Part shown: positions 21,679 to 64,000 of the stretch, piece after piece
Layout of the letters: every line of letters begins with the position of its first letter
Position numbering within the stretch: position 1 is the first letter of the stretch
IMG/VR virus record: IMGVR_UViG_3300044912_000713
Length of the DNA stretch: 64,000 nt
Reading direction: 5' to 3' (one strand)
Source: an uncultured virus (IMG/VR IMGVR_UViG_3300044912_000713)
Taxonomy: Duplodnaviria > Heunggongvirae > Uroviricota > Caudoviricetes
Translations under genes and position numbers: made by a program
Notes under the pieces: generated by a model
The model's input: only the letters and a program-made list of their open reading frames with translations
What the model was told of the DNA's origin: nothing
The model's database searches: none

Positions 21679-21999
21679 ATGAAAGTCAAGAGCGAAAACT
21701 GGCTTCAGTTCAAGCGGAAGTTCACCTACATGCTCGACATACTGGGAGACGAATCCGACAAGTTCTCATTCGGGGACTCCCCGGACGACTTCTCCCTGTT
21801 CGTGAACGAGTGCGAGGTGATACCTATATTCGCTAGGAAGGACAGCGTGATGCGGGTGGAGTACGACTTCACCATGTGCAACACGAGAATCAGGACGCTG
21901 GCGCTGTCCATCTACATGGACGCCGCCAGAATCGAGATGACATTGAAAGACGACAAAAAAATCGACGACGAAATAAAATGGCAAGAGAACCACTGTTGA
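21679..21999 (+). CDS. Hypothetical protein
   Basis: Packed ORF overlapping the ATPase start. Confidence 0.6.
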   Translation: MKVKSENWLQFKRKFTYMLDILGDESDKFSFGDSPDDFSLFVNECEVIPIFARKDSVMRVEYDFTMCNTRIRTLALSIYMDAARIEMTLKDDKKIDDEIKWQENHC

Positions 22000-22796
22000 T
22001 GGCCGCTTGCGGAAAGAAGGGCGTGGGAAAGAGCTACCAGCACATGCTGCTGATGAACGGATACGTGATGGGAGACCCCTACAGGGGCGTGAAGGGTCGC
22101 AAGTGCCTAATCATGGACGTCAACGACGAATACTCCGTATACAACGTGCCGGCGATATCGCTGAACGACATCCCCCTCTACACGGTTCATCCGTACACGG
22201 AGATTAGGAGGATTCGCCCTTTTCATCCCGACGGCAGGAGGATGACGCTCGACGAGTGGGCAAACGCGCTCTTCTACGTGCTCAACCGATTCCAGAACGG
22301 ACTGCTGCTCATAGAGGACATCAACAAGTTCATAGGAGACCACCTGCCGCACGACCTCGTCGGCGCGATAGCCACGAACAGGCACGCGGGCCTCGACATC
22401 ATTCTATCGTACCAGTCGCTGGGTCGCATCAACACGAAGATTTGGGGCAACATGAACATCATGCGATTCCACAAGAACGTGGAGAGCGTGGAGAGGCACA
22501 AGATGAAGTTCCCCGACAAGTACGAGATGATGCGAATAGCCGAGATAATCGTCAACAACGAATACCACAAGGGAAACAACCGCTTCTTCGCCTACGTGGA
22601 CATGGACGAGGAGAAGATAAGGGGAGACATGAGCAACGAGATAATAGAGGCGGGAATACTTCAGTACGTCTACGAGAAGAATTCGGAGATAATAAGGCCG
22701 TACCTGTTCCAGAAGGAGAACGGAAAGAAGAAGTACAACCAGGAGACCGCCACCAAGGAGGTGTGCGAGAGGCTCAGAAGGCAGTATTTCCAGTAA
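21978..22796 (+). CDS. A32-like (FtsK/HerA superfamily) genome packaging ATPase
   Basis: Walker A GKKGVGKS near the N-terminus, Walker B LLLIED, family motif NRHAGLDIILSYQ; 272 aa; next to the putative capsid gene. Confidence 0.8.
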   Translation: MAREPLLMAACGKKGVGKSYQHMLLMNGYVMGDPYRGVKGRKCLIMDVNDEYSVYNVPAISLNDIPLYTVHPYTEIRRIRPFHPDGRRMTLDEWANALFYVLNRFQNGLLLIEDINKFIGDHLPHDLVGAIATNRHAGLDIILSYQSLGRINTKIWGNMNIMRFHKNVESVERHKMKFPDKYEMMRIAEIIVNNEYHKGNNRFFAYVDMDEEKIRGDMSNEIIEAGILQYVYEKNSEIIRPYLFQKENGKKKYNQETATKEVCERLRRQYFQ

Positions 22797-23187: not shown

Positions 23188-23901
23188 ATGAGTTCTATTC
23201 AACGCTATTTACAAATGGCAAATCGTTCTGTGAACGAGCAGTTTGTTGGCGCAGACGGATTCTTGGATGATGACATGTATTTCACTGGTGGCCAGTTCTT
23301 CGACACTGACTTAGTTGGTGCCGATGGCGCTGCTGCAGCTCCCGCTGTTACAGCTCCTAGCTTAATGCGCTCTCAGCCTTACATCCTCACCGTTTCCAAC
23401 GCGTCCAACGCGGCAGTTACTATCGACATTTTCGGTGCTTACATCTATTTGAACAACGCTGGTTTCACAGCCGGTTCATTGACAGTGAGCAACGTGACTA
23501 TCACAAGTAACCTGTCAAACGTTACCTATTACAACCTCTTGAACCAGTCAAGCTTCAGCCCTTTCACAATCGGAAGTACGCTGATTAGCTCTGTGAACGG
23601 TACCACCAGCCAGGTGTTACAGCCAATCACACTGACTACTCAGGACGCAAACGGTAACCAAGCGGTGAAAATCTTGACACCAGTAGTTGACCCATATCAG
23701 AATCAGTCTGGTATCGTTGACCTGAAGCAGCCATTCAGAATCGACGGCTTCACGAAGCTGACGTTCTCTATCTACGCTTCAACCAGCGTTCAGTTCCAGT
23801 TCTATCCTTCTGATACCATCAACGTTGCTCGTGGCCTGGGTGGAAACCCTGTGTCTAAGCAATACGGCAGTCCGAAGATTATCAGACCTGCAGTACGCTA
23901 A
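23188..23901 (+). CDS. Putative major capsid protein (single jelly-roll-like, beta-rich)
   Basis: Beta-strand-rich and charge-poor; distinct codon usage; own promoter and terminator; adjacent to the A32-like ATPase; paralog at 59833. Confidence 0.65.
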   Translation: MSSIQRYLQMANRSVNEQFVGADGFLDDDMYFTGGQFFDTDLVGADGAAAAPAVTAPSLMRSQPYILTVSNASNAAVTIDIFGAYIYLNNAGFTAGSLTVSNVTITSNLSNVTYYNLLNQSSFSPFTIGSTLISSVNGTTSQVLQPITLTTQDANGNQAVKILTPVVDPYQNQSGIVDLKQPFRIDGFTKLTFSIYASTSVQFQFYPSDTINVARGLGGNPVSKQYGSPKIIRPAVR

Positions 23902-23989: not shown

Positions 23990-24397
23990 ATGTCAAACCA
24001 AAGGGCAAACATATACGGATACATGGCGGCCTCGAACCCCTATTTCGTGAAGTCCCTCGCGTACAAGTACGGATACGAGTACGACAAGGACCAGTCGCTT
24101 TCGACCGTTCTGCAGCAGCTCGTGAGCTACGAGGGTGAGCCGGTCCTAATCGAGATTATCGAGAACCATCCCGACAAGGAGCTTTTCGCCGACTACTTCA
24201 AGAAGCAGTTGGACAAGAGCCAGGAGACGCCGAAGGCGCCTTTGACCAGCGAGCTCGCAACGTACATGAACTTCACCGGCCAGCTGGCGGCGGTGCAGCA
24301 GGTAGCGGAAAACAAGAAAGTAACGACGGAGACTAGCCTAATGGTGCTCGCGGGCGCCATGCTAATCGCCTTCGCCATCATAACGAAAAAAAATTAA
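23990..24397 (+). CDS. C-terminally anchored membrane protein
   Basis: YMNFTG motif; C-terminal TM. Confidence 0.7.
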   Translation: MSNQRANIYGYMAASNPYFVKSLAYKYGYEYDKDQSLSTVLQQLVSYEGEPVLIEIIENHPDKELFADYFKKQLDKSQETPKAPLTSELATYMNFTGQLAAVQQVAENKKVTTETSLMVLAGAMLIAFAIITKKN

Positions 24398-24403
24398 GAT
24401 AAA

Positions 24404-25138
24404 ATGGCAACACTGACGGCCGTAGACACAACGAGGGCGCTGCTCTCATACCAAGTGGTAAACGACAGGGACTCCCTGATATCCCTTCTGAAGCGGAACG
24501 GGGTATCCCTTTCACCAAACAGCACCGACGCGGAGCTAAACACCGCGATTCTCGTCGCAAGCTCCAAGAGCGAGAACTTCAAGAAGGAGCTGGCAAGACT
24601 GCTAGCATCCAAGGCCGAGAGCGCAGGGGACAAGTTCGCCTCGTTCGCGGGTGGAGAAGACATGTTCGGATTCACCGGAATCGACGACTTCCAGAGCGCC
24701 AACGGTCCCGCCCTTCCGAGAACGACCGTCGCGAACGTGAAAGCGCAGCCCGTTCAGATTTCCGCCAGCAGAATGGCGAGCATACAGGCGCAGGCGGTAA
24801 ATCCAACCGGAGCGAAGGGTAAGACGAAGGTCGGAGCCGCCCTGTCATCGGTCGGCAAATTCCTGAAGGACAACGTTCTCACCAAGGAGAACATAGACAC
24901 CGCCGTGCAGGTGGGACTGACCAAGATAAACACGTCAACCCAGAACAAGGCCAACAAGGTCGCCAACGAGACGCTCCTTCTGCAGCAGCAGCAGGACGAG
25001 ATTCGCATGCAGCAGGGTGCTGGGGCGAAGACGGGAATGGGAACGGGAGCGTGGATAGCGATTGGCGTCGGCGTAATAGCCCTGGTGGGAATAATCATCT
25101 ATGTATCAAAACGCGGCTCTAAGGCGGCGGCAAACTAA
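24404..25138 (+). CDS. C-terminally anchored membrane protein
   Basis: FASFAG, FGFTG, FQSANG motifs; AWIAIGVGVIALVGIIIYV TM. Confidence 0.75.
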   Translation: MATLTAVDTTRALLSYQVVNDRDSLISLLKRNGVSLSPNSTDAELNTAILVASSKSENFKKELARLLASKAESAGDKFASFAGGEDMFGFTGIDDFQSANGPALPRTTVANVKAQPVQISASRMASIQAQAVNPTGAKGKTKVGAALSSVGKFLKDNVLTKENIDTAVQVGLTKINTSTQNKANKVANETLLLQQQQDEIRMQQGAGAKTGMGTGAWIAIGVGVIALVGIIIYVSKRGSKAAAN

Positions 25139-25144
25139 GAACGC

Positions 25145-25630
25145 ATGAACATCAGCATAAAGAAAGCAATCGGACTGGCCGCGATAGCCGTGGCCGGATA
25201 CTACCTGTTTAAGGCGATGGGAAAGAAAACCCCTGAGGCGAAACCCGCAGAGGGCGGACAGGCTTCGCCTCCAGCGAACGTCTCGGCGGACGGATTCAAC
25301 TCCAACCCGACGAACGCGCAGAGGGACATATTCAGGAGAGGTCCGGTGGACATCGTGAGACCGGAGCGCATACCATACCGCCCCGCGAAGCCGTGCCGCA
25401 AAGAACCCATCTACATGCCGTCGTACAACGCGATACCCAACGCATACGACAGGACCGTGGGGATGCCTTTGATGAAACGAAACCCTGCGACGGAGATGTA
25501 CGCGAACGCCGACGGAACCCAGATGTACGCGACCTTCGGCGGAAGGTGCAGCACGGACCTGCAGAGCGCTTGCCGCTGCATGTCAGAGAAGACAGAGAGA
25601 TATAAAATCGACATTCCTCAACTACCATAA
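25145..25630 (+). CDS. N-terminal TM protein
   Basis: TM; VSADG and YANADG motifs. Confidence 0.7.
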   Translation: MNISIKKAIGLAAIAVAGYYLFKAMGKKTPEAKPAEGGQASPPANVSADGFNSNPTNAQRDIFRRGPVDIVRPERIPYRPAKPCRKEPIYMPSYNAIPNAYDRTVGMPLMKRNPATEMYANADGTQMYATFGGRCSTDLQSACRCMSEKTERYKIDIPQLP

Positions 25631-25639
25631 ACAAAACTT

Positions 25640-25786
25640 ATGAACAACAACATCAGATATGCCGGAGTCGGAGCCGTGATAGGCGGGATAATCGGCGTCA
25701 TCATGGGAAAAAGCATATTGACTAACGCCCTAATCGGGGCGGCAATCGGAGTGGGTGCCGGATACCTGAAGAATAAAAATAAGTAA
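25640..25786 (+). CDS. 48-aa glycine-zipper membrane protein (missing from ORF track)
   Basis: GVGAVIGGIIG...LIGAAIGVGAGY. Confidence 0.7.
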   Translation: MNNNIRYAGVGAVIGGIIGVIMGKSILTNALIGAAIGVGAGYLKNKNK

Positions 25787-25788
25787 AG

Positions 25789-26025
25789 ATGGCCGAGGCT
25801 AAGGAGATACTAGACAAGCTGAAACAGCTGAAGTCCAAGTCGGACAACATGTCCATGCGGAAGAGCAGGGCGACCGTGAACGGCGCGCTGATAGGCGCGG
25901 CCGGAGGCCTCCTGGTCGGAATGGCCCGAAACTACAGCCTGATATCGTCCGCGATGGTGGGTTCTGTACTGGGGGCGCTGGTAACATATCTCGTACTTCC
26001 AAAAAACGACGACAATGAAGAATAA
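25789..26025 (+). CDS. Glycine-zipper membrane protein
   Basis: GALIGAAGGLLVG...MVGSVLGALV. Confidence 0.7.
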   Translation: MAEAKEILDKLKQLKSKSDNMSMRKSRATVNGALIGAAGGLLVGMARNYSLISSAMVGSVLGALVTYLVLPKNDDNEE

Positions 26026-26452
26026 AGGCGTGGTAATAGTTTCTTCGGTGCTGGCACTGGCCGGGGCCTATTTCATCTACCGCTACTTCACGGCAAAGAA
26101 TAAGAGAATGACCATAGGTTTGAATCCGGCGGACGCAAACACGACGGTCGGAAGCCGGGACATAGTCGGCGAAGATGTTCTCAAAAAGGGAAGCAAGGGG
26201 GCGAAGGTGAGGAGGCTGCAGGGTCTCCTCTTGAAGATTGACCCCAAGTCGCTTCCGAAATACGGGATTGACGGGGACTTCGGTTCGGAGACCGAGGCCG
26301 CGGTGCTGAAGGTTCTGGGAAAGACCGTCGTCACCGATTCCGACATGGCCGAACTGGAGAAGAGGGCGCTGAGGGCGCAGTTTCCATACGTGGCGGCCCC
26401 TGCCTCGACATCGCAGCCGAAGCCGCTGTTTCTCGCAGACCTTGGAAAATAG
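26015..26452 (+). CDS. Membrane-anchored peptidoglycan-binding (PG_binding_1) protein
   Basis: N-terminal TM; LKKGSKGAKVRRLQ...GIDGDFGSETEAAV. Confidence 0.85.
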   Translation: MKNKGVVIVSSVLALAGAYFIYRYFTAKNKRMTIGLNPADANTTVGSRDIVGEDVLKKGSKGAKVRRLQGLLLKIDPKSLPKYGIDGDFGSETEAAVLKVLGKTVVTDSDMAELEKRALRAQFPYVAAPASTSQPKPLFLADLGK

Positions 26453-26472
26453 GACAAAAAATAACCACATAG

Positions 26473-26775
26473 ATGAACCAAGACCAACCCATGGAAAAGG
26501 AGCTGACCGCAAACCAGCTCTACAAGAACTACAGAGACGAGGGAGGAACCCTCAAGTTCTCTGACTGGCTTACGAGAGAGAAGACGAAGGGAGTATTCCC
26601 AATCAACGGAAACCTCGACGTGGAGGTAAAAAAGACTATTATGAGCGTAAAGAGAAATTCAGGGGCGAAGAGAACAATCCTGGGCATGCCGGTGGGAACA
26701 CTGGTCGCCGTGGGTGCGGTGCTAATCGCCGCCGTGGTAATATCCAAAATAATGACTAAAAAGCAACAGCCATGA
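26473..26775 (+). CDS. C-terminal TM protein
   Basis: Hydrophobic tail. Confidence 0.7.
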   Translation: MNQDQPMEKELTANQLYKNYRDEGGTLKFSDWLTREKTKGVFPINGNLDVEVKKTIMSVKRNSGAKRTILGMPVGTLVAVGAVLIAAVVISKIMTKKQQP

Positions 26776-27059
26776 GAAACTTCATACTGGGAATAGCCGT
26801 GGGAGCCGTCGGGATGCACATACTGCACAAGATGGGGTACATGGGTGCGAATCCACCCAAGACGCAGGCCGAGAAGGACGCCGCGGTCAGCGGTGTCATG
26901 GAAGAGGCCAAGAACTACGGTGACGCGCTGAAGAGGCAGTTCGACATCGTGATGCCTTCCGACGTGGTCTCCAAAAGAGCAGAGGAGCTTGGAAAGGTGT
27001 TTACTCAGGGTAGATATTCTATTGACGTAACAAGGGAAAAAGCACCACTTTCAATATAA
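26772..27059 (+). CDS. N-terminal TM protein
   Basis: FILGIAVGAVGMHIL. Confidence 0.7.
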   Translation: MRNFILGIAVGAVGMHILHKMGYMGANPPKTQAEKDAAVSGVMEEAKNYGDALKRQFDIVMPSDVVSKRAEELGKVFTQGRYSIDVTREKAPLSI

Positions 27060-27886
27060 TGAACTTCACGCTCTGGACAAGATACGAACCCGTCACCGTG
27101 AAGGTGGTCATCATGACCACTTCCCCGGAAACGATTGCCCTGAAGGTCTACGACCCTTCTCAGGCGAACACCGTATTCACGGACAGGACGAAGACCGTGA
27201 GCGGGACGGAGGAGCTTTACGTGAGGATGCCACTCTCACCCGGAACCGCCAAGCTTGAAATATACAACAAGAAGAACGGGAACATACCGGTGGACAACTC
27301 ATTCAAGATAGTATCGATAACGAAGCAGGACCTGCAGAGGACGCTCGCCAGGACAAAGATGGACACCTTCGGAGTCCGGAACTTCGTCGAATTCGCGCAG
27401 AAGTTCGCGTTCAACGCCGGATGGCTAGCCGCACCGAAGGACTACGTCAGCGGGATGGGACCTTACAAGATTGAGTACCTCCCGGTGATAATAAACTCCA
27501 GGGGCGAGAAGATGGCTACCCCGGCCCGAATCAGCACCAAGAACGGAAGGATTCAGGCCTCTCAGCAGGCCTTCAGAAACTTCACCATCCCGATGAGGAT
27601 GGCTATTCTGCTGCACGAGTTCAGCCACTTCTACCTCAACGACGACGTCTCGAACGAGACGGAGGCCGACTTGAATGGACTCACAATATACCTCGGACTC
27701 GGATATCCAATCAGGGAGGCCTTCGCCGCCTTCGGGGAGACCTTCATCGGAAGTCCGACGCCGCAGAACAAGCAGAGGTACGACATAATCGACAAGTTCA
27801 TAAGGGACTACGTCGAGGAGTACAAGATAAAAGACGTCTACGCCGCCGAGCCAGTGGCGCAGAGAAAAATGATTAGGCTCGCATAG
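27059..27886 (+). CDS. Zincin metallopeptidase (HEXXH)
   Basis: ILLHEFSH followed by ETEAD (third ligand). Confidence 0.75.
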   Translation: MNFTLWTRYEPVTVKVVIMTTSPETIALKVYDPSQANTVFTDRTKTVSGTEELYVRMPLSPGTAKLEIYNKKNGNIPVDNSFKIVSITKQDLQRTLARTKMDTFGVRNFVEFAQKFAFNAGWLAAPKDYVSGMGPYKIEYLPVIINSRGEKMATPARISTKNGRIQASQQAFRNFTIPMRMAILLHEFSHFYLNDDVSNETEADLNGLTIYLGLGYPIREAFAAFGETFIGSPTPQNKQRYDIIDKFIRDYVEEYKIKDVYAAEPVAQRKMIRLA

Positions 27887-27891
27887 ATTAT

Positions 27892-28251
27892 ATGAAAAGG
27901 AAAACACTCTTTTGGGTTGGAATATACGCGGCCGCCGGGGTCGGCATCTATTTTCTGTTGAAAAAAACCAATGTCGGCGCCAGACTATTCAATCCGCCCC
28001 TGAAGGAGATGCAGGATAAAATGTGGGACGTCTATGTTTCGGCGTTTCCGTCCGTGGCACAACTCAAGGAAACATATTTGAAGACGGATGCTTTCACTGA
28101 CGAGGCGTTTTTGGCGGCTTGGTACAACGCCCACAAAAAGGGTCAAAGCGCCTTCAAGTATAAAAACAGATACTGGGAGACCAAGTCTGGAATGGGTGTT
28201 GGATGGAAGGATACGCAGGACGCGTTAAAAAATTACAGTGCCAATAAATAA
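27892..28251 (+). CDS. N-terminal TM protein, AT-richer than its neighbours
   Basis: TM; many T/A-ending codons. Confidence 0.7.
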   Translation: MKRKTLFWVGIYAAAGVGIYFLLKKTNVGARLFNPPLKEMQDKMWDVYVSAFPSVAQLKETYLKTDAFTDEAFLAAWYNAHKKGQSAFKYKNRYWETKSGMGVGWKDTQDALKNYSANK

Positions 28252-28259
28252 ATTCAATC

Positions 28260-28823
28260 ATGGCTAAGACAAAGGTTTATCAATACTACACCGAATTGCC
28301 ATCCTGGGCGAAGGGAATAGTCGTGGTCGGCGGAATAGCGATAGTGTACTTCGCGGGCCGCTCCATTTTTAGAAAGCTGCGGGAGTCCAAGACCGCCCAA
28401 GACTCGAGAGAGGCGGTAAAAGACGCCGAAAACGACAAGTCAAAACTGGTCAGGGGCGGCGTGAAGGCGTCCTACAGCAAGACGCAATACCAGACGTGGG
28501 CGAACGCAATCCAGCAGCAGTTCGAGGGTTGCGACTTTTCGGCCGAGATAACCTGGGGTAGCGACTCTCCCCTGGGCGCGGCATCCGTATGGAGCAGCAG
28601 TGGCTACAAGGTGGCGTCCATTCTTAACCAGTTGAAAAACGACGTGGACTACCTCGAACTCACGACCGCGTGGGGCATCAGGACCTACGACGCCTGCGGA
28701 TATTGGACTGGGGACATCAAGAACGTGGACTTTTCAAAAGCCGTTCAAAGCGAACTGTCGGCTAGGGAGATATCCAACCTGAACCAGATTTTGAAGAAAA
28801 AAGGAATCAAGTACCAACTATAA
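28260..28823 (+). CDS. N-terminal TM protein
   Basis: GIVVVGGIAIVYF followed by a helical domain. Confidence 0.75.
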   Translation: MAKTKVYQYYTELPSWAKGIVVVGGIAIVYFAGRSIFRKLRESKTAQDSREAVKDAENDKSKLVRGGVKASYSKTQYQTWANAIQQQFEGCDFSAEITWGSDSPLGAASVWSSSGYKVASILNQLKNDVDYLELTTAWGIRTYDACGYWTGDIKNVDFSKAVQSELSAREISNLNQILKKKGIKYQL

Positions 28824-28834
28824 AATAAACAGAC

Positions 28835-29365
28835 ATGGCAGCAGCAGCAGTATTTTTAGCACCAACGGTAGTGGGGGGAACGCTCTTATCGAAGCGGGCC
28901 GAAAACAGGAGAAAGCAGGCGGCGGCCAACGCCTTCTCGCAGAAGTACCCACTCGTCGACAACCCGGCATCCAACAGCGCAGCCATACAGGCGGCGAAGG
29001 CAGAGCTAAAGGCGATAAATGCTTCTCCCGCAAGGACGCCCGGGGCGAAGCGCGTAAAAAACAGAAACAGCGCGGAGCTGTCGAAGTGGATTGCCGTCAT
29101 GGAGTCCCATGGAAAGGACCTGAAGGCCGGAATGGCTGTTGCGACTACCCAGTCGGCGGCGGTGGCTAGCATGGCCCCCAACGTGGCGAACACGCCCCCG
29201 GTCGTGATGCCCCCAAGCCAGGGCGGAACGCAGGAGCCCGAGACGCCCGCGGAGGCGGCGGCTGCGGAGAACATGGCCGCACCGACGAAAGGAGGCACCA
29301 ACTGGCTTCTCATCGGCGGCATCGCCATAGGCGCGATAGTATTGTACAAAATAATTAAAAGATAA
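28835..29365 (+). CDS. C-terminal TM protein
   Basis: NWLLIGGIAIGAIVLYKII. Confidence 0.7.
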   Translation: MAAAAVFLAPTVVGGTLLSKRAENRRKQAAANAFSQKYPLVDNPASNSAAIQAAKAELKAINASPARTPGAKRVKNRNSAELSKWIAVMESHGKDLKAGMAVATTQSAAVASMAPNVANTPPVVMPPSQGGTQEPETPAEAAAAENMAAPTKGGTNWLLIGGIAIGAIVLYKIIKR

Positions 29366-29368
29366 GAC

Positions 29369-29941
29369 ATGGCAATCGAGATGATTGAAAACAACGAGCT
29401 GGCCGCGCTGGCTCCTAGCAGACTGGGACTCAACGAGTTCGCGGACGACAACTGGGCGTATAGGAACTACACCGGCTCGGACGAGTTCTTCAACCTTTTC
29501 GGTAGCAGGCAGGCCAAGAAGGAAAAGTATTCGCAGCAGGTACAGCAGAAGTTCGGCGGACTATCCACGGACTGCGAAAACATACAGACAAGCATCGACC
29601 TGGTGAACAACGAGCTCAGGACCCTACTGAAGCAGAAGCAGAACCTGGAGGTTAAGACCAAGGTCAAGAACCTGAATGCCAGACTGGGCGAGCTCAAGGC
29701 AATGCAGATTTCGCAGAAGTGCGAGAAGCAGCTGGCGGAGCAGCAGCGCCAGACGCAGCAGGAGGAGGTTTTGACGACGCTGACAAAGCTGAGCGACGTT
29801 TCGGTCGGCAAGGCGTCCGAGGAGCTGAAGGGCCTGCAGGGTGGCGAACCAGCCGGCACGGACACCAACAAGCTTCTCCTTTACGGGGGAATCGGGGTGG
29901 CCGCCCTCGTCGTGATAATCCTAATCGCAAAACGAAACTAA
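29369..29941 (+). CDS. Coiled-coil protein with C-terminal TM
   Basis: YRNYTG and FFNLFG motifs; TM tail. Confidence 0.75.
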   Translation: MAIEMIENNELAALAPSRLGLNEFADDNWAYRNYTGSDEFFNLFGSRQAKKEKYSQQVQQKFGGLSTDCENIQTSIDLVNNELRTLLKQKQNLEVKTKVKNLNARLGELKAMQISQKCEKQLAEQQRQTQQEEVLTTLTKLSDVSVGKASEELKGLQGGEPAGTDTNKLLLYGGIGVAALVVIILIAKRN

Positions 29942-29942
29942 A

Positions 29943-30425
29943 ATGAAGAAACTGGCGGCGCTGGCCGGAATAGGGATAATCGGGTACGCACTGTACCGCT
30001 ACTACAAGAAGCAGATAGCCTTCCTGGAGGACCTGACATACCAGGTGGTCGGCGTGAGCCCCAGGGAGATTTCGAAGAGCAACGTGTCCGTGGACGTAAC
30101 CGTGAAGGTTTTCAACGCGTCAAACGTGAACGTCACCATCACGCAGATAATACTGGACGTCCTGGCGAACGGGGTGAAGGTGGGAAGCGTCAACGAGACC
30201 AAGGACATAACCCTCCTTCCCGGAAAGACGACCGTGCTGTCATTTAATTTCTCCTTCAATCCGCAACTCGTACTCAAAAATTTAGTAGATTTGGTCACGT
30301 TAACAGTGGCCGCAAAAGACCTCAAGATTCGGCTCGAGGGTTACATCAGGGCGAGGAGCTCTTTTCTGAGCACGTCGCTCCCGTTCACCTACGAGACGAG
30401 CCTGAAAGAGGCGATAAAAAGATAA
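29943..30425 (+). CDS. LEA_2/WHy-like domain protein with N-terminal TM
   Basis: VKVFNASNVNVTI....DVLANGVKVG pattern. Confidence 0.7.
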   Translation: MKKLAALAGIGIIGYALYRYYKKQIAFLEDLTYQVVGVSPREISKSNVSVDVTVKVFNASNVNVTITQIILDVLANGVKVGSVNETKDITLLPGKTTVLSFNFSFNPQLVLKNLVDLVTLTVAAKDLKIRLEGYIRARSSFLSTSLPFTYETSLKEAIKR

Positions 30426-30429
30426 AAAT

Positions 30430-39581: not shown

Positions 39582-39606
39582 AATTGAAACATAAAAAACA
39601 AATCAC

Positions 39607-42497: not shown

Positions 42498-42504
42498 AAA
42501 GATA

Positions 42505-54132: not shown

Positions 54133-54141
54133 TTTTTTTCG

Positions 54142-54167
54142 TGAATTTATGGAAATTCTTATATTCA
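54142..54167. promoter_or_regulatory. Back-to-back divergent TAnnTTCA promoter boxes
   Basis: TAAATTCA on minus (54142-54149) and TATATTCA on plus (54160-54167) between divergent genes. Confidence 0.65.
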
Positions 54168-54185
54168 CGGAAGTAAATAATTGAC

Positions 54186-55367: not shown

Positions 55368-55588
55368 CAATCGACAAGAAGAGGCACGTCGCAAAGACCA
55401 TAAGCTACCGGCTCGTAAGCACGGGAATAGGCTTCGTCATGATGTATTTCGCCACCGGCAGCCTTAAGATAGGCGCCGCTTTCGGCGTTGCGGAGCTGAT
55501 ATACAAGCCCATTCAATACTACCTGCACGAGAGGGTCTGGTACCGATACATAAAGTACGGACTCAAGAGAGAGAAGGGTCAACGGTAG
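55364..55588 (+). CDS. DUF2061-like small membrane protein
   Basis: KTISYR...YYLHERVW. Confidence 0.75.
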   Translation: MTIDKKRHVAKTISYRLVSTGIGFVMMYFATGSLKIGAAFGVAELIYKPIQYYLHERVWYRYIKYGLKREKGQR

Positions 55589-56396: not shown

Positions 56397-56407
56397 GTCT
56401 TTTAAGG

Positions 56408-56415
56408 CAAATTTA
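56408..56415 (-). promoter_or_regulatory. Canonical Bacteroidota -7 promoter box TAAATTTG
   Basis: Exact TAnnTTTG match 11 nt upstream of the hldD ATG. Confidence 0.55.
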
Positions 56416-56416
56416 G

Positions 56417-57187
56417 TCAAACCACGCTAACCCCGCGCTGTGATACTACGGTTCCAGCCAAGTCGTTTGCGTAGTCTATGGCCGCGTAGATTTTTCCAGA
56501 CCTCATGTAGCTGAAGGCAAGTGCCGCCGTGAAGGTGTCCCCTGCCCCGCTCACGTCTATGGTGTTAATCGGCTTGCGCGAAGGGTACTTGGTTCCGCCG
56601 TGCATTGCCCCGTCCGAGCCAAGCGTCACGACGAACTTGGTGGAAAACTTCCTCTTGTGGGTCTGCAGCACGTTCTCTGCGTACTCTTTGCTGTTGAGCT
56701 TTATGAAGTCAACGTAATCGAAGATGGAGAGCTCCATTTTTTTCTTCGTATCCATGAAGACGGGACATTTTTCCTTCTTCAACCTCGATATCCTCTTCAA
56801 ATCCTCTATCTGGATGAACCCCTTGTCGTAATCGGACACGATTATGCAGTCGGCCTTAGAAATCTTGTCCTTGGCCTCCGGGGTGAATGAAATCCGCTCG
56901 AATTCCTCCTCTTCGTCCACGCGAAGGAAGTAGTGATTGGTCTTTGAGTCGACGTACCTTGTCTTGACCGAACCCGATGCGGAGAGGATGGCGTCCACGG
57001 AATGTGCGTTTCCGTTCTGGAAGGCGATTGAGGCGAGGTTGTTGAAAACATTCGCAGCCATCCCTTTGTTCTCCCTCCTATAGGAAGGTGTGAAAACGGG
57101 TACGGGCGCTTCCGGGGAAAGCCTGTTGGAGTCCCCGTATACGAACACGTCCGTGCACTGCTCGCCTATGACTAGAAAATTGGCCAT
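56417..57187 (-). CDS. hldA: Heptose-7-phosphate kinase (RfaE/HldE domain I, PfkB family)
   Basis: RLSPEAPVPV, GMAANV, SDYDKG, DVSGAGDTF. Confidence 0.88.
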   Translation of the reverse strand: MANFLVIGEQCTDVFVYGDSNRLSPEAPVPVFTPSYRRENKGMAANVFNNLASIAFQNGNAHSVDAILSASGSVKTRYVDSKTNHYFLRVDEEEEFERISFTPEAKDKISKADCIIVSDYDKGFIQIEDLKRISRLKKEKCPVFMDTKKKMELSIFDYVDFIKLNSKEYAENVLQTHKRKFSTKFVVTLGSDGAMHGGTKYPSRKPINTIDVSGAGDTFTAALAFSYMRSGKIYAAIDYANDLAGTVVSQRGVSVV

Positions 57188-57552
57188 CAGTTTCCCTTTT
57201 TTATCCTGTAGGAGTCGTGGTCGAAGTGCTCCGTTGACACTTCGATTATCTCCCCGTCGGTCAAGGCGTGAAGCTGGTGGGGCATACCGGTCGGTATTTC
57301 GACCACGTCGCCCGGAACAAGGCTCCTCGTATGCTCGACTCCCCGCTCCGTGTCAATCCAGTTGAAGATGAACTCCCCCACCCTGACAAACCAGGTCTCC
57401 TGCTTCACCATGTGGTAGTGCATCGAGAATCTGCATCCGGCGCGAAACTCGAGAATCTTTCCGCAGTACTTATGACAGTTGTGAATGACCAGCTCGCGCC
57501 CCCATCCTTTGGGTATCTCGCAGCATTTAGTCAATTTTGGCTCTTTTCCCAT
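57187..57552 (-). CDS. Cupin (sugar isomerase-like)
   Basis: KGWGRE, SMHYH..KQETW, PHQL, EVST. Confidence 0.8.
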   Translation of the reverse strand: MGKEPKLTKCCEIPKGWGRELVIHNCHKYCGKILEFRAGCRFSMHYHMVKQETWFVRVGEFIFNWIDTERGVEHTRSLVPGDVVEIPTGMPHQLHALTDGEIIEVSTEHFDHDSYRIKKGN

Positions 57553-57943
57553 TCTTTATCTTTTTTATGGTTTCCGAAGTCGACAATCCCCCTATGCGCT
57601 GAAAGAAAGTCACGTTGGCGCAGTGCTCCGCGCCTATTATCTTCTTGCCCATGTAGTCGCTGCCGATAACCATCTGCCATGGGCTGAGCTGCCTGATGTA
57701 GTCGGACAGCTGGTGGTCCGTATCGAATACGTACACTTTTTCAACATACACCAGAGATTCAAGAAGAGACTTCCTGAACTGCTGGTCGTTGACCGGCCTG
57801 TCAGAACCCTTGGCCTGGCGAATCCTCGCGTCCGAGTCGATTCCGACGAATACCATGTCTCCGAGCGTGGAGGCGAACTCAAGAAGCTTGAGGTGGCCCA
57901 TGTGCAGGACGTCAAAGCATCCGTTTACCCATACTTTTCTCAT
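57527..57943 (-). CDS. hldC: Heptose-1-phosphate adenylyltransferase (RfaE/HldE domain II)
   Basis: NGCFDVLHMGH, DSD...KG..RP, GSDY, STS. Confidence 0.88.
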   Translation of the reverse strand: MRKVWVNGCFDVLHMGHLKLLEFASTLGDMVFVGIDSDARIRQAKGSDRPVNDQQFRKSLLESLVYVEKVYVFDTDHQLSDYIRQLSPWQMVIGSDYMGKKIIGAEHCANVTFFQRIGGLSTSETIKKIKNGKRAKID

Positions 57944-58070
57944 AGGAGTATTGTAAAATTTTCACTTAATTGTCCTAGCAACGAATATAAATAATTCCAC
58001 AAGATATGCAATCTTTTGAAAAATTGTGCACGTAATCAAAAAAAACCAGTATTTTCATGTGCAATATATT

Positions 58071-58349
58071 ATGACAGAGATGAGCATCGATACGAGAACA
58101 GTCGAGCGCTTGGACGCCATGGAGCGCACGCTCGAAAGCCTGGTTCACAAGTTGAACAAGCTATATGTGGCGGTTGCAGGGGACGAGACCCTCGACCAGG
58201 AAGGATACCTGCAGCGGCTGAAGAAGCTGGAGAAGCAGGTTCACGAGCATCAAGTCCTAAAATACAAACTCATGGGCGCTTTCGTCGGAGGTGGTGCGAT
58301 TTGGACCATACTCTGGGAGGCGTTCAAAAAATTAGTACTGAAAAGCTAA
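58071..58349 (+). CDS. Coiled-coil protein with C-terminal TM
   Basis: Follows a TATTTTCA box; hydrophobic tail. Confidence 0.65.
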   Translation: MTEMSIDTRTVERLDAMERTLESLVHKLNKLYVAVAGDETLDQEGYLQRLKKLEKQVHEHQVLKYKLMGAFVGGGAIWTILWEAFKKLVLKS

Positions 58350-58777
58350 TGCCAGTGTTACCATCAGCAACTTCTACGGCTGCAACCGCGGCCACCAGCG
58401 CCTCCAAGGCGAGCAGCATCGCTGGAAAGGCAGACGTCATAGGGGCGGCCGGACAAGTGGGGGCTCTCGCAATCAGCACCATCGGACAGATTAGCGACGC
58501 CAACAAGCGCCGCAAGTTCGAGGAAAACTTCTCGAGGCTGACTTTGGAGCAGCAGAAGGGGCTGGAGATGCTGCTGATAGAATCGAAGTCGAACACGGAG
58601 AGGCTGTCAGTGCTAGCGCAGTATCTGACGCAGCTCAACGCGCAGCGGATATCGAACCTGGCCTCGTACTACGGGGAGAAAGAGAAGAGCGGTAGAAACA
58701 AAACATTGATAATTCTCGGTGGAGTCGTGGTGGCCGGCATACTGGTGACGTATCTGCTCCTGAGAAACAAGAACTGA
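58349..58777 (+). CDS. C-terminal TM protein
   Basis: Coupled TAATG start; similar architecture to the next ORF. Confidence 0.7.
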   Translation: MPVLPSATSTAATAATSASKASSIAGKADVIGAAGQVGALAISTIGQISDANKRRKFEENFSRLTLEQQKGLEMLLIESKSNTERLSVLAQYLTQLNAQRISNLASYYGEKEKSGRNKTLIILGGVVVAGILVTYLLLRNKN

Positions 58778-58778
58778 C

Positions 58779-59126
58779 ATGCCCATACCAATAATCATAG
58801 CGGCGATTGGGGCTGCGGCGAGCGTCGCATCGGCCGCTTCTGGCGTTGACAAGGCCTCCAAGGAGAGGTATTTCAGCCAGCAGTTGGCCTTCTTGAACCA
58901 AGATGAGCAGAACCAGCTAGCAAAAAAATTGGAGGGGGCGAAGAGCAACGACGAGAGGGTCAGGATACTCACATCCGCGGTCTCATCCGTGGAGGAGGCG
59001 AGGCTGAAAGGTCTCACCACTGTCCAGCTCGAAAGGGAAAAGACCAAGAAGACCCTGCTCGTGGTGGGAATCGCCGGAGCGGTCGTTCTTCTTTTGACTG
59101 TTTTAATAGTATCAAAAAGAAATTGA
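58779..59126 (+). CDS. Membrane protein, likely paralog of the preceding ORF
   Basis: Shared L..EQ..L...L...KSN.ER...L motif and TM tail. Confidence 0.7.
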   Translation: MPIPIIIAAIGAAASVASAASGVDKASKERYFSQQLAFLNQDEQNQLAKKLEGAKSNDERVRILTSAVSSVEEARLKGLTTVQLEREKTKKTLLVVGIAGAVVLLLTVLIVSKRN

Positions 59127-59127
59127 A

Positions 59128-59511
59128 ATGCCAGAAGTAAACGGTCTAGACACGCTGCAAGACAAGGCGCTGACCCCCGACAAGAAAGACCAGCTGGTAA
59201 ACCAGATACAGTCGGAGATTGACTCGCTGAATCGCATACTTAGGGAGCAGGGTGCTCCCGCCGCGGTTTTGGAGGCAGCCAAGAGGAATAAGAACTCGCT
59301 GCAGGGACTTGTCAACAAGATTCTCGCCAAGAAGGGGGTGATAACGCCGACAGAGACGAACGACGCCCTTGAGGCGATGGCGAAGGCCAAGCGGGAGCGT
59401 CTCGAGAGCGACTTCTCGACGACTGTTCGCAGATTTGCAATTGTGGCTGGACTTCTGATTGGCGGCTATCTGGCCTGGAGGTACGTGAAAAAATTAAACC
59501 AGAACGGATGA
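59128..59511 (+). CDS. C-terminal TM protein
   Basis: FAIVAGLLIGGYLAW. Confidence 0.7.
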   Translation: MPEVNGLDTLQDKALTPDKKDQLVNQIQSEIDSLNRILREQGAPAAVLEAAKRNKNSLQGLVNKILAKKGVITPTETNDALEAMAKAKRERLESDFSTTVRRFAIVAGLLIGGYLAWRYVKKLNQNG

Positions 59512-59831
59512 ATAAGAACTTAAAGACGGCGATATTGGTCTTCGGGGGCGGAATCGTCCTCTACTGGGCTTTCACCAAAATCAGGCCTTTCGTAAAGACA
59601 AAGAAATTGAAGAAGGAAATCGAATCGGGTTCCGCCGGAAGCGCGGAGAAGGTTAAAAAGGCGGGCGCGGCCCTGAGGGCTTACAACACCGCCAAGAGGG
59701 AAGGGCAGCCGAAGGAGTTTCTCGACGAACTGAACCTCGAGCTCATGAAGGAGTACGGGGTTAAAATCATGACGGACAAGTCTACCGGAAAGACATTCGC
59801 GGCCGATTCCGATGGCAACAAAATAGTGTAA
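59508..59831 (+). CDS. N-terminal TM protein
   Basis: AILVFGGGIVLYWAF. Confidence 0.7.
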   Translation: MNKNLKTAILVFGGGIVLYWAFTKIRPFVKTKKLKKEIESGSAGSAEKVKKAGAALRAYNTAKREGQPKEFLDELNLELMKEYGVKIMTDKSTGKTFAADSDGNKIV

Positions 59832-59832: not shown

Positions 59833-60354
59833 ATGGCAGTACCTCCAGTGATAACGACAATACCACCTGCAATTTCGGTGACCGCACCGGCGGGAAGCGT
59901 GCTGGGTACGGGGATAACGTACCAGCAGTTTTTGCAGAGCCTCGGCACGTACAACTACGGTGTCGAATACTTCTACATGCAGGCCTCTACCTATCCGGAG
60001 ATTGGACAGCCGGTATATTACAACAGGTTCCTGGCGAACGGGGACTCCGTGACGGCTTTCTTGCCTTTTCATGTCGACCCTTACCAGTCCCAACCGGCCA
60101 TCTTCTACGAGACCGAGAGGGACCAGATAATCTTCACCGGACTGACCGCCCTGCAGTTCAAGCTCCAGCCGACCAGCACCGTGTACTTCAAGTTCTTCGC
60201 CACGATTCTCTACATAGGCAACGATTCCAACCATAGCTGGGACGCCTACATGGGAACCGACGCGTTCAAGCAATTGGAGCAGGAGGAGGGAATCACGTTC
60301 TTCGACGACTACTGCAATTACCTAATAGACGAAAGCAACGACAATGTCAATTAA
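59833..60354 (+). CDS. Paralog of the putative major capsid protein (minor or second capsid protein)
   Basis: Colinear TY..L, QP, ANG, VDPYQ.Q, G.T.L.F, V.F.F shared with 23188-23901. Confidence 0.7.
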   Translation: MAVPPVITTIPPAISVTAPAGSVLGTGITYQQFLQSLGTYNYGVEYFYMQASTYPEIGQPVYYNRFLANGDSVTAFLPFHVDPYQSQPAIFYETERDQIIFTGLTALQFKLQPTSTVYFKFFATILYIGNDSNHSWDAYMGTDAFKQLEQEEGITFFDDYCNYLIDESNDNVN

Positions 60355-61813
60355 ACGGGAGCTCATACAGTTCACGCTGGTCAATTCGACCGACTGCGAG
60401 TACACCATTCCGCTCATGCAGCTGAATGTATATTCTATCAACGCAACGACCAAGTACAGCTGGAACATAACCTCCCAGAACCTTTCCTGCGGGACGGGAA
60501 GTATCGTGATAAATTCAATCACATACAACATAACATTTGCCCCGAACCTGGCCGGACTCCTGGCCGCGTTGAACGCGCTCGGATTCGGATTCTTCTGCAG
60601 CGAGACGATTGGACCCAACACATTCATATACACCGTCGACGACACGAACATATACGGAAACCTTGACCTGTGCGCGACCGGAACGACCACGACGACAACG
60701 TCAACAACATCAACGACATCAACGACTTCCTCAACGACTTCGACGACTAGCTCGACCACGTCGACCACCTCATCTACGACATCTACGACTTCAACGACCT
60801 CTTCAACGACATCTACGACTTCTACTACAAGTTCGACCACGTCGACCACTTCATCGACAACCACCACGACATCGACTACCACCACGACGACAACCCTTTC
60901 AGGCGTAAACCTTAACCTCCTCGAGCAGGCGGTAACAGGCGGTAGCAATATAAACGCAGAATACAGCACAGACCTCGGTGTCACATGGACACCGTTCCTA
61001 AACAATCCGGTAACTTCGGGCAATCCAAATTACAATTCGTATAATTTTCTAAACCTGCTACCCGGAACCACATTGTACGTCGCGTTGCTTGACACATCTA
61101 ACAACGACATACAATACGGTTCAGGATTTTTCAGCTCCGACTATGTCTCACTGTGCGGTAAGTCAACGCCATTCATCACGACTATATTAACCGGAGTAAA
61201 CAATATCTACTTGAACGTCGCGGTGTCCGGTGGAAATCTGGTTAATTGCCCGGTTACCACTACCACGACTACAACGACCACATCAACTACGACAACCACA
61301 ACAACTTTGCCGGCCTGCGTCGAATCGGTATCTTTCGACGTTACCAGCCCTGGTGACGTATCGGTGACAAACTGCTGTGGAATCGCTTCACTCAACACGT
61401 ACGCGATAGGAAGCTACACCCTAACTGCGGACTGTTATCAGCTTAACGGCGTTGTTGCGATAGACGCGGTAATAACCAACGTCGTATACTCTCTTCCTGC
61501 GTGCAACTGTCCTCCGACGACCACAACCACGTCTACGACCACCACGACTACGACTGTGGGTCAGCAGATAAACATATTCTTGGACACGACTTCGATTAAC
61601 GTGTGCTCGGGTAATACCTTCAACAACGTATACATAACCCAGAGCTCGACTTTCGGACCTGGAACGATTGTCTACTATGACGCCGGTTGCACGCTACCAA
61701 TGAACAACACGAACACCTACTTCTACGTTGTTAAGAATCCTAGCGCGTCGCAGACCGTGTACGACTGGGATGGAACGACGGGGACGATAGGAAACTCGGT
61801 CGGAAGCTGCTAG
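60344..61813 (+). CDS. Thr/Ser-rich mucin-like structural protein (spike-like)
   Basis: Four beta/Cys domains linked by three poly-Thr/Ser tracts. Confidence 0.8.
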   Translation: MSIKRELIQFTLVNSTDCEYTIPLMQLNVYSINATTKYSWNITSQNLSCGTGSIVINSITYNITFAPNLAGLLAALNALGFGFFCSETIGPNTFIYTVDDTNIYGNLDLCATGTTTTTTSTTSTTSTTSSTTSTTSSTTSTTSSTTSTTSTTSSTTSTTSTTSSTTSTTSSTTTTTSTTTTTTTLSGVNLNLLEQAVTGGSNINAEYSTDLGVTWTPFLNNPVTSGNPNYNSYNFLNLLPGTTLYVALLDTSNNDIQYGSGFFSSDYVSLCGKSTPFITTILTGVNNIYLNVAVSGGNLVNCPVTTTTTTTTTSTTTTTTTLPACVESVSFDVTSPGDVSVTNCCGIASLNTYAIGSYTLTADCYQLNGVVAIDAVITNVVYSLPACNCPPTTTTTSTTTTTTTVGQQINIFLDTTSINVCSGNTFNNVYITQSSTFGPGTIVYYDAGCTLPMNNTNTYFYVVKNPSASQTVYDWDGTTGTIGNSVGSC

Positions 61814-61846: not shown

Positions 61847-62824
61847 ATGAGAACGGAAGAAAAGCGGCTGACGCTGATTTGCGTGCAGCCTTCAATAATC
61901 TACTACGCATGGCAGGTGGAGGTCATGCTCACGAACTTCGAGCGGCTCAACCTTCACGATAAATACAACATCCACTGCCTGTTCGCCTACAACAAGAGCG
62001 AACCGGACTGGAGGGAGAAGGTGGCGCTCGTCACCAAGGTGATGTTCCGATTCCAGGGAGTGGCCGAATTTTACTTCTACCCGGACACGAGGCAGTATCC
62101 GGTAAGCTACATCTCATCGATTAGACCCAACGCCCTCAAGCAGCACTTCGCCAGATTCCCCGAGCTCGGGAAGCAGGCGGTTTTCTACCACGACTGCGAC
62201 ATTATCTTCTCCAAGTACCCCGACTTCCTCGATGTCATGGTCGAAAGCGGGGAATGGTTCGTTTCGGACACGATATCCTACATCGGATACGAATACATCG
62301 TATCGAAGGGACACGACGTGCTCGACCTCATGTGCCGCATAGTGGGATGCCACCCGTTCCTGATTAGGGACAGGCAAAGCCAGTCTGGAGGCGCGCAGTA
62401 CCTGATGAGGGGCGTCGACTTCCAGTTTTTCGACAAGATGGAGAGGGATTGCGAGCGCATGTACCGAGAGGTGACCGACCTAAACAACAAGAAGAAGCAG
62501 CTCGACCCCAAGCACCACGAGCTACAAATCTGGTGCACCGACATGTGGTGCCTCCTCTGGGGGGCGTGGATGAGGGGATACGACACGCACGTCTCGCCGG
62601 CCCTTGAGTTCTGCTGGGCCACGGACCCGCTGGAGAAGTTCGAGAAGAACTACATTTTCCACAACGCCGGCGTTACGAAGGCCGGAGAGGGATTCTTCTA
62701 CAAGGGACTCTACACAAACTCACTGCCATACCAGGATGAGAGGTATCCGATAAACCCGCAGTCCGCGAGCTCCAAATACCACGAGCTTCTTATGGAGGTC
62801 GGAAAGACAAGCTGCCTAATATAA
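61847..62824 (+). CDS. GT-A glycosyltransferase resembling protein O-glycosyltransferases (HPAT/SERGT-like)
   Basis: Y.WQ, Y..SIRP, YHDCDIIF (DxD), GGAQYL, WCTDMW. Confidence 0.6.
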   Translation: MRTEEKRLTLICVQPSIIYYAWQVEVMLTNFERLNLHDKYNIHCLFAYNKSEPDWREKVALVTKVMFRFQGVAEFYFYPDTRQYPVSYISSIRPNALKQHFARFPELGKQAVFYHDCDIIFSKYPDFLDVMVESGEWFVSDTISYIGYEYIVSKGHDVLDLMCRIVGCHPFLIRDRQSQSGGAQYLMRGVDFQFFDKMERDCERMYREVTDLNNKKKQLDPKHHELQIWCTDMWCLLWGAWMRGYDTHVSPALEFCWATDPLEKFEKNYIFHNAGVTKAGEGFFYKGLYTNSLPYQDERYPINPQSASSKYHELLMEVGKTSCLI

Positions 62825-62829
62825 AACCC

Positions 62830-63060
62830 ATGATAGACAAGATTAAAGAGATAGTCCAGTCGTACGCGACTATGGTAAACCCCACGGACGAGCAGAAGCG
62901 CGCCGCCGAGATAAGGCTCCTGAGCTGCATGAAGTGCGAGGAGTGGAAGCAGAACGCTGTCGGAATCAGCTACTGCGGAAAGTGCGGATGCGCGACAAAG
63001 GGAAAGATATTCTCCCCGAAGGGGGTGAACGCATGCCCGCTGGGCAAGTGGATAATATAA
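62830..63060 (+). CDS. Small Cys-rich zinc-binding protein
   Basis: R...C..C...C..CGC...K....CPLGKW. Confidence 0.75.
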   Translation: MIDKIKEIVQSYATMVNPTDEQKRAAEIRLLSCMKCEEWKQNAVGISYCGKCGCATKGKIFSPKGVNACPLGKWII

Positions 63061-63070
63061 AATTCTAAAC

Positions 63071-63586
63071 ATGCCATACAGTTACGGAGAGTTCAAGACC
63101 CAGGTCAGGGACCACATAGTGGACAACTTCCCCAGGAGCACTAAAATACTGGACGTCGGCGCCGGAAGCGGCACCTACGGGAACCTTCTGAAGCCCCACT
63201 ACGACGTGGTGGACGCCATCGAGGTTTTCCCAGAGTACGTGAAAATGTTCGACCTGCGCTCGAGGTACAACTACGTGCACATTGGAAACATCATGCAGTT
63301 CGGGTTCGAAGGATACGACTACCTCGTGCTGGGGGACGTGCTCGAGCACCTGACCGTCTCTGACGCGACCTCGCTGATTGAGAGGATTGACGCGCTGGGA
63401 AAGAAGGCGCTGGTGGCCGTGCCGTACATGTTCGAGCAGGGGATTGAATTCGGAAACATCTACGAGACCCACCACCAGCCGGACCTCACCGTGGCGAGGA
63501 TGTACCAGCGATACCACACCCTTAGGCTCATATACGGAGACCTCGGCTACGGTTACTACATCAACTACATACCGCCGATAAAATGA
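63071..63586 (+). CDS. Class I SAM-dependent methyltransferase
   Basis: ILDVGAGSG, GDVLEH. Confidence 0.88.
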   Translation: MPYSYGEFKTQVRDHIVDNFPRSTKILDVGAGSGTYGNLLKPHYDVVDAIEVFPEYVKMFDLRSRYNYVHIGNIMQFGFEGYDYLVLGDVLEHLTVSDATSLIERIDALGKKALVAVPYMFEQGIEFGNIYETHHQPDLTVARMYQRYHTLRLIYGDLGYGYYINYIPPIK

Positions 63587-64000
63587 ACCTGAAAGTCGTA
63601 GTAAACAACAGGAACAGGCTCACGACGACCAGAAACATGGTCGAGCACCTGCTGCGGCTGAACCCGAGGCAGGAAATCGTCATTCTCGACAACGCCTCGA
63701 CGTATCCGCCCCTCATGGAGTGGTACCAATCCGTAAACGAGAATCCGGAGAGGTGGCCCACCCTGCAAATCAGGCTCCTGCCGAACCTCGGACACCTGGC
63801 GTTCTGGAACTCAAACATGCAGGGCGAGGTCGGCGAGTACTTCGTGTACAGCGACTCAGACATAGAGCTCGACCCGGAGATGCCCCATAATTGGGCGTTG
63901 CAGATGATTAACTTGATTGAGAAGTACGAAATCAATAAGGTCGGGCTTTCCATACGGATTGACGACATACCGGACCACTATCCCCATAAATCCCAGGTTT
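63583..64000 (+). CDS. GT2-like glycosyltransferase, 3'-partial
   Basis: MNLKVVVNNRNR...IVILDNASTYPPL...VYSDSD; runs off the window end. Confidence 0.7.
   Translation, partial: MNLKVVVNNRNRLTTTRNMVEHLLRLNPRQEIVILDNASTYPPLMEWYQSVNENPERWPTLQIRLLPNLGHLAFWNSNMQGEVGEYFVYSDSDIELDPEMPHNWALQMINLIEKYEINKVGLSIRIDDIPDHYPHKSQV

Follow-up and report, generated by a model that had tools for sequence, protein, structure and literature searches.

Introduction

In tailless jelly-roll viruses, the kinship between vertex and capsid proteins is usually seen in the fold alone. VP7 of HCIV-1, HHIV-2 and SH1 and VP16 of the Thermus phage P23-77 are small single-jelly-roll proteins that stand beside a larger one and are regarded as its paralogs. 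Genes of this type adjoin the large capsid gene and the ATPase gene, an adjacency that is a defining feature. The vertex of PRD1 and PR772 (Tectiviridae), with penton P31 and spike protein P5, is among the known systems closest to the one described here. For HCIV-1 and HHIV-2, VP9 is described as a single-barrel penton that acts as an adaptor for distinct spikes and docks on the membrane protein VP13; it is 20.7% identical between the two viruses, and their capsid proteins are highly similar (PMC6414509). The conserved set reported for sphaerolipoviruses consists of the capsid proteins, the main membrane protein and the ATPase, and the genomes reported are 28-31 kb (PMC12643093).

The stretch of DNA analysed here, called the window below, comprises the initial 64 kb of one virus record from lake water, 71,736 bases long. 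We propose that one of its small proteins is an ancient, fast-evolving paralog of the putative jelly-roll capsid protein, likely the base to which the spike attaches and predicted to form the penton at the capsid vertices. We give this reading a probability of about 0.6. By analogy, the penton of tailless membrane viruses is probably the known role that fits the protein best.

Judged from genes and models, the small paralog resembles VP9 in that it is small, predicted to be a single barrel and distinct from the lattice protein, with strong divergence beside a conserved capsid, as described for VP9 (PMC6414509). It differs from VP9 in other respects. VP9 reaches the membrane by an N-terminal helix, whereas the small paralog has a Pro/Thr-rich N-terminal arm and a C-terminal extension, and it is still recognisably homologous in sequence to its capsid protein. 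The genomes of its lineage measure 72-102 kb rather than about 30 kb, and HCIV-1 and HHIV-2 are archaeal viruses, whereas the host here is, by inference, probably a bacterium.

Results

The two genes compared start 36.6 kb apart, the capsid gene lying upstream.

59833..60354, + strand: small paralog (the A1 family), 173 aa, ATG start, intact ORF; Pro/Thr-rich N-terminal arm (1-29), jelly-roll-like core (about 30-129) and C-terminal helical tail
23188..23901, + strand: putative major capsid protein, 237 aa; N-terminal helix and disordered arm (1-60; arm 15-60) and jelly-roll core (61-210)

The initial annotation had taken the 173-aa protein for a distant paralog of the putative capsid protein after aligning the two by eye, and BLASTP bore this out. 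Capsid residues 139-206 aligned with residues 53-122 of the small protein (22/70 identities, 31%; E 9e-7 as a single comparison), with five of the noted motif pairs in order: QPITL/QPVYY, DANGN/LANGD, VDPYQNQ/VDPYQSQ, DGFTKLTF/TGLTALQF and STSVQFQF/TSTVYFKF. The sixth pair, TYYNLL/TYQQFL, was aligned by hhalign. Profiles were compared with three alignments, namely A1 (45 small-paralog sequences), A2 (27 capsid sequences, a subset of 399 capsid relatives) and A3 (47 capsid sequences from IMG/VR loci, more diverse than A2). Aligning A1 with A2 gave a probability of 97.2% and E 3.3e-11 over 96 columns; with A3, the local alignment reached 97.9% and E 5.4e-13 over 129 columns and the global one 98.1% over 144 columns. 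The profile-profile alignment suggested as a check was significant at both E-values.

An HMM built from A1 scored the capsid protein of the window at 44.9 bits (E 1.9e-13 among 311 window ORFs), compared with 2.7 bits for the next window ORF and 14.4 bits for the best of 2000 shuffled capsid sequences. The reciprocal test gave 19.1 bits versus at most 12.4 for 2000 shuffles. Across 61 related IMG/VR loci the A1 HMM also matched 64 ORFs of the capsid type, and 62 of these matches had E 5.4e-7 or lower; the 173-aa and 237-aa proteins were the only two family members in the whole 71,736-base record. By these comparisons the two proteins are homologous, beyond chance. An extension of the homology to the first capsid strands (63-97) was set aside; hhalign places residues 9-16 of the paralog on the capsid strand 103-107.

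The 173-aa protein had no family match in Pfam, PHROGs v4 or NCBIfam. A profile search of PDB chain sequences with the A1 family returned a single unrelated chain (E 0.16) and hence no similarity to VP9. The profile of the 237-aa capsid protein matched no curated family and no PDB sequence. Searches of the ESM Atlas with both proteins returned only unnamed clusters, with scores up to 0.87 and TM up to 0.32.

We compared the two proteins by AlphaFold2. The model of the 173-aa protein had a mean pLDDT of 60.2, with blocks of residues 41-120 at 73-81 and 70 residues below 50; six strands were modelled, and the termini, including the N-terminal arm 1-29, were not. The capsid protein, modelled on A3, had a confident beta core (block pLDDT 82-94 over 61-210). 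The elements of the small paralog (H30-36, E39-50, H54-57, E61-66, E72-77, E89-93, E105-108, E118-129) and those of the capsid model (H114-123, E126-137, H140-144, E147-152, E158-163, E176-179, E190-195, E200-207) corresponded one to one at an offset of about +82 to +84, which is the hhalign register. The match of its helix and six strands to the capsid helix and last strands makes the small paralog look, in these models, like a capsid core that lacks its N-terminal arm and first strands and carries an added C-terminal helical tail.

The structural neighbours of both models were nucleoplasmin-type and STMV-type jelly rolls, all below the noise bar of the tool itself (best Foldseek E 0.09). The best of them, the nucleoplasmin/NPM1 core, shares a fold-class likeness only, again below that bar, and says nothing on function, nucleoplasmin being a eukaryotic histone chaperone. 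The structural match to the penton of FLiP (PDB 8a06 chain E), a small ssDNA virus with a double-jelly-roll capsid protein, was weak. A Foldseek search of BFVD with the capsid model found nothing beyond generic jelly rolls (C1q-like proteins, nepovirus coat), none of them above TM 0.51. These neighbours support the fold class and nothing more specific. Structure prediction, the other check suggested at the outset, agreed with the paralogy in that the order of secondary structure was the same in the aligned register and both models had jelly-roll neighbours, at a moderate pLDDT for the paralog.

The small paralog is a well-populated family. It had 119 relatives at E<=0.01 in 90% clusters, and an exhaustive profile search gave 344 representative clusters at E<=1e-3. 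Across the 45 sequences of A1, 17 positions were invariant (including Y30, Q32, G38, P83, Y84, Q85, F157, C161 and Y163) and 13 nearly so, and the C-terminal helical tail of about 45 residues is specific to the family and ends in a conserved FFDDYCNYLID. A capsid-gene duplicate that is non-structural or decaying, with no role in the particle, would account for quick divergence. We nevertheless regard it as very improbable, given the intact ORF, the 30 positions just listed as invariant or nearly so, the number of clusters, a conserved place in a structural-looking operon and fusions to spike domains.

Among 14 contigs with a capsid protein at least 78% identical to that of the window, 10 carried the small paralog. 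In these 10, identity to the window was 32-47% for the small paralog versus 78-84% for the capsid protein. All five distant records that were searched (74-102 kb) held exactly one small copy besides the capsid gene, 147-180 aa long as called (open frames of 156-181 aa) and 17-38 kb from it. We then placed the copies in a maximum-likelihood tree of 68 hand-picked rows (48 small-paralog, 15 capsid and 5 other paralog domains). A 100/100 branch split all 48 small-paralog rows from the capsid and other paralog rows, and the other paralogs nested inside the capsid clade. These data show the small paralog as a single old clade that occurs once per genome across the lineage. Its terminal branches measured about 0.3-1.5, versus 0.02-0.19 for capsid rows; by branch length as by identity, it evolves far faster than the capsid protein.

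The gene of the small paralog is flanked as follows.

58026..59831, + strand: five small, closely packed genes that appear to share an operon with the paralog (58026-58349, about 58346-58777, 58779-59126, 59128-59511 and 59508-59831)
60344..61813, + strand: spike-like protein, 489 aa, its start overlapping the end of the paralog gene by 11 bases; N-terminal domain at about 1-112 (LNALGFGFF...DDTNIYG), poly-Thr/Ser linkers and variable distal domains

Two of the five small upstream genes encode hydrophobic membrane-type segments. Their order was kept in 16/16 close loci and was recognisable in the five distant genomes, and the stop of the last (59508-59831) sits 1 base before the paralog ATG. 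On the other side, the 11-base overlap means that the paralog and spike genes are, by their layout, translationally coupled. In this tightly coupled operon, the paralog gene stands with the genes of small membrane-type proteins on one side and the spike gene on the other.

A spike-type ORF of 333-1364 aa was directly downstream of the paralog, or overlapped it, in 16/16 close loci. What these proteins have in common is the N-terminal domain alone (LNxLGFGxF...DDxNVYG); behind it come Thr-rich linkers and distal parts that are unrelated. Spike residues 1-115 had 217 relatives among proteins of 268-856 aa, with L76, N77, L79, G82, F84 and D99 invariant. In the distant genomes, a spike-type ORF lay at most one gene from the paralog in 5/5 (directly in two, with one ORF between in three), as called by HMM in two genomes and by a motif recognised by eye in three. 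The intervening ORF of about 155 aa in the last three (L079:1883-2362, L081:1044-1502, L082:1889-2353) is conserved but unrelated to its neighbours, with a motif around HPDK..N..GGN, and is absent from the window; this interruption counts against the proposed tie to the spike.

The paralog and the spike also appeared in one chain. In 8 of the 150 listed representatives (344 clusters), a paralog domain was followed by a spike N-terminal domain, with domain E-values of 1.2e-3 to 4.9e-17; one of the eight also had PKD and LRR matches. Fused forms stood beside unfused ones with strong support in the 68-row tree (P0250/P0274, P0278/P0262 and P0305+P0347), and from these three pairings or clades, fusion or fission therefore happened more than once. 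Two further candidates were rejected: the spike-N HMM match of P0242 overlaps the paralog domain itself and is probably spurious, and the reverse domain order seen by eye in P0370 had no HMM confirmation.

The initial annotation had further linked the small paralog to the adjacent spike, as its anchor. This link gained support from the 16 adjacent loci, the gene overlap and the eight fusions, all of it sequence-based, and from adjacency, overlap and fusions the small paralog likely binds or anchors the spike. Loci with a closer paralog (46-47%) also had a closer spike N-terminal domain (59-61% over 113 aa), and in the same loci the capsid protein and the products of 59508-59831 and 61847-62824 were slightly less similar to the window. 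With the 16 loci forming just two groups, such co-variation of the paralog with the spike N-terminal domain is no more than suggestive.

The association with the spike does not by itself fix a place on the particle. Synteny and fusions would equally suit a spike foot or adaptor distinct from the penton, placed on another vertex protein, on special capsomers or on the viral membrane; its capsid-like fold would then dock onto the lattice. A membrane-tethered form does occur in the family: among 53 representatives of at least 190 aa, 18 had a C-terminal hydrophobic anchor (Kyte-Doolittle 1.8 or above), and about 20 more had, by eye, a weaker C-terminal hydrophobic segment followed by Lys/Arg. This alternative differs from the penton in position alone. 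We consider such a foot distinct from the penton unlikely, since every genome has one copy and no other penton candidate was detectable by sequence in the lineage, and since size and fold class match the single-jelly-roll pentons described in the structural account of HCIV-1 and HHIV-2 (PMC6414509). The anchors also bear on the preferred penton reading, as fusion to an outward spike and a membrane anchor place opposite demands on the same C-terminus, which only long linkers reconcile.

The surroundings of the capsid gene are of a different kind.

21876..22796, + strand: putative genome-packaging ATPase, Walker A GKKGVGKS, just upstream of the capsid gene
23990..30425, + strand: small ORFs downstream of the capsid gene, a single hydrophobic segment being present in many

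The true start of the ATPase gene is probably an internal ATG. Its product had weak PHROGs matches (terminase large subunit, E 6.6e-4; Zot-like, E 1.1e-3), nothing above the Pfam threshold and no PDB sequence match; motif and position point to a role in packaging. Hydrophobic segments on the Kyte-Doolittle scale were present in 8/13 ORFs examined of 23990-31162, and the sole Pfam match of the small ORFs in 23990..30425 was LEA_2 at 29943-30425. We regard these ORFs as candidate virion membrane proteins. The capsid gene is preceded by an A-rich leader of its own, about 290 bases long. Its GC3 is the lowest among 41 window genes (0.54; others 0.61-0.88), and it lies in the only 2-kb bin of the window with GC <0.5. 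We infer that the virion is tailless with an internal membrane and that the 237-aa protein forms its capsid lattice. The small-paralog gene has a genome-typical GC3 of 0.74, no leader of its own and an internal position in its operon. With codon usage and operon position as proxies, it does not look highly expressed.

The initial annotation had left open whether the small protein is a second capsid protein or a vertex protein. A second small major capsid protein would join the 237-aa protein in pseudo-hexameric capsomers, in the manner of VP7 and VP4, and the penton would be some other protein. At 237 and 173 aa, the two proteins are close in size to the large-and-small capsid pair of sphaerolipovirus-type viruses, and the small paralog is similar in size to VP7 and VP16. 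Paralogous jelly-roll proteins of unequal size occurred in every lineage genome examined, no third jelly-roll protein was detectable in the 71.7-kb record, and two single-jelly-roll capsid proteins are described for HCIV-1 and HHIV-2 (PMC6414509; PMC12643093).

Several observations nevertheless make a second lattice protein quite unlikely. VP7 and VP16 genes adjoin the capsid gene, whereas the small-paralog gene neighbours the spike gene and, both here and in 5/5 distant genomes, is 17-38 kb from the capsid and ATPase genes. It lacks features of high expression, both in GC3 (0.74 vs 0.54) and in having no leader. Its repeated fusions involve spike domains that reach several hundred residues, and on a lattice protein such a fusion would make the whole shell carry spikes. 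Its 32-47% identity, against 78-84% for the capsid protein, marks it as fast-evolving, whereas sphaerolipovirus capsid proteins, VP7 and VP16 included, are reported among the most conserved structural proteins (PMC12643093). A vertex protein fits better than a second capsid protein because the gene is away from the capsid and ATPase genes, evolves faster and lacks the codon usage of the capsid gene.

Further copies of the capsid type were seen in relatives. A 102-kb record (L061, the same record as L032 and G001) has at 9824-11017 a 397-aa ORF with two tandem capsid cores (residues 57-205 and 239-393; E 1.8e-21 and 1.1e-25), a natural double-jelly-roll-like fusion whose halves both nest inside the capsid clade; this genome also has a single-domain capsid gene. 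L025 has two tandem full-length capsid genes (10001-10702 and 10726-11427). Other relatives have shorter capsid-clade paralogs of 193-220 aa (L023:6784-7437, L039:7727-8308 and L060:605-1267), which lie 2-3 kb upstream of the main capsid gene.

The virus itself belongs to a lineage that looks tailless and membrane-containing and is undescribed. None of 61 window ORFs scanned matched a tailed-phage structural family in Pfam, and neither the capsid protein nor the ATPase had a tblastn match in 50,697 deposited phage records. A full-text literature search found no description of the lineage or of the small-paralog family. Near-identical DNA was found by a sequencing-run search in 24 lake-water metagenome runs, all DNA, with no RNA run among those listed. 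The record of the window has no terminal repeats and may be incomplete. Its IMG/VR relatives reach 102 kb, and four of the five that were opened are rated 100% complete. One of the five, a 74-kb relative (G004, the record of L016 and L078), has inverted terminal repeats according to the IMG/VR classification, which would fit a linear, possibly protein-primed genome.

Gene starts gave a hint of the host. A Shine-Dalgarno-like core at -20 to -5 was present in only 4/40 window gene starts, and the 20 bases upstream of these 40 starts were 51% A, versus 25% in the window. The scarcity of cores and the A-rich leaders suggest that the host does not rely on Shine-Dalgarno sites, a pattern that hosts such as Bacteroidota fit. 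By these start-site statistics, the host is probably a bacterium, for example one of the Bacteroidota.

Discussion

If the small paralog is the penton, its history and working could be as follows. A copy of the capsid gene would have lost the N-terminal arm and first strands and gained the C-terminal helical tail. Its product would oligomerise at the five-fold positions, docking the spike N-terminal domain on the outside and touching membrane proteins on the inside. The paralog and the spike N-terminal domain would change together as a host-range module, and the lattice protein would stay nearly constant.

One counterpoint to the penton concerns the rest of the shell: with the paralog at the vertices, no second lattice protein is detectable in the record, and the capsomers would be built from one single-jelly-roll protein. 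We know of no solved precedent for such capsomers. That the lineage builds a large icosahedral shell with an internal membrane from one single-jelly-roll protein plus a penton copy of it is a tentative idea, and rather doubtful. If true, it would represent the simplest state proposed for the ancestors of two virus types, the sphaerolipovirus-type viruses with two capsid proteins and the double-jelly-roll viruses of the PRD1/adenovirus type. The next evolutionary steps appear to be visible in relatives, in the tandem capsid genes of L025, the 397-aa double core of L061 and the spike-fused pentons.

A jelly-roll vertex protein that anchors a spike is a known kind of component. New here are a family without a curated match whose kinship with the capsid protein is at the level of sequence, and its occurrence in three architectures: free, spike-fused and membrane-anchored. 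Also new is the undescribed lineage, with genomes several times larger than the 28-31 kb reported for sphaerolipoviruses (PMC12643093). The kinship still visible in sequence (E about 1e-13) would point to the origin of a spike-bearing vertex-type protein by duplication of a shell protein. Together with the hypervariable Thr-rich spikes, the three forms provide a testable model of a host-recognition module. The group concerned is one of abundant, undescribed large freshwater viruses, probably of non-Shine-Dalgarno bacteria such as Bacteroidota, and the capsid protein and small paralog form a marker pair with which such viruses can be found and sorted in metagenomes.

Other parts of the window also carry recognisable genes. 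Pfam domains of the early region, at 76-1632, 9114-10193, 12484-13532, 16159-16758 and 19014-19658, comprise a Zeta-toxin/AAA_33 kinase, a RadC-like JAB domain, two glucosaminidase domains, a chitinase-class-I-like domain and a PAP2 phosphatase. ARAGORN called a 93-base tRNA-SeC with anticodon TCA at 12504-12596; it overlaps the start of a glucosaminidase-like ORF (12484-13035) and may be a false call. Four very large proteins with collagen triple-helix repeats (1745, 1012, 845 and 839 aa), one of them also with PA14, are encoded at 31270-45024, the most GC-rich part of the window (0.64-0.72), and may be virion fibres.

A large sugar-modification block occupies 45925-57943 (mostly - strand) and 61847-63999. 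It encodes a carbamoyltransferase, two GT9 heptosyltransferase-like proteins, GT1/GT4 enzymes, an epimerase, a cupin, an APS-kinase-like protein, a methyltransferase and a GT2 enzyme, as well as a PfkB kinase and a cytidylyltransferase, the two halves of an ADP-heptose-type pathway. The poly-Thr/Ser linkers of the spike could be targets of glycosylation.
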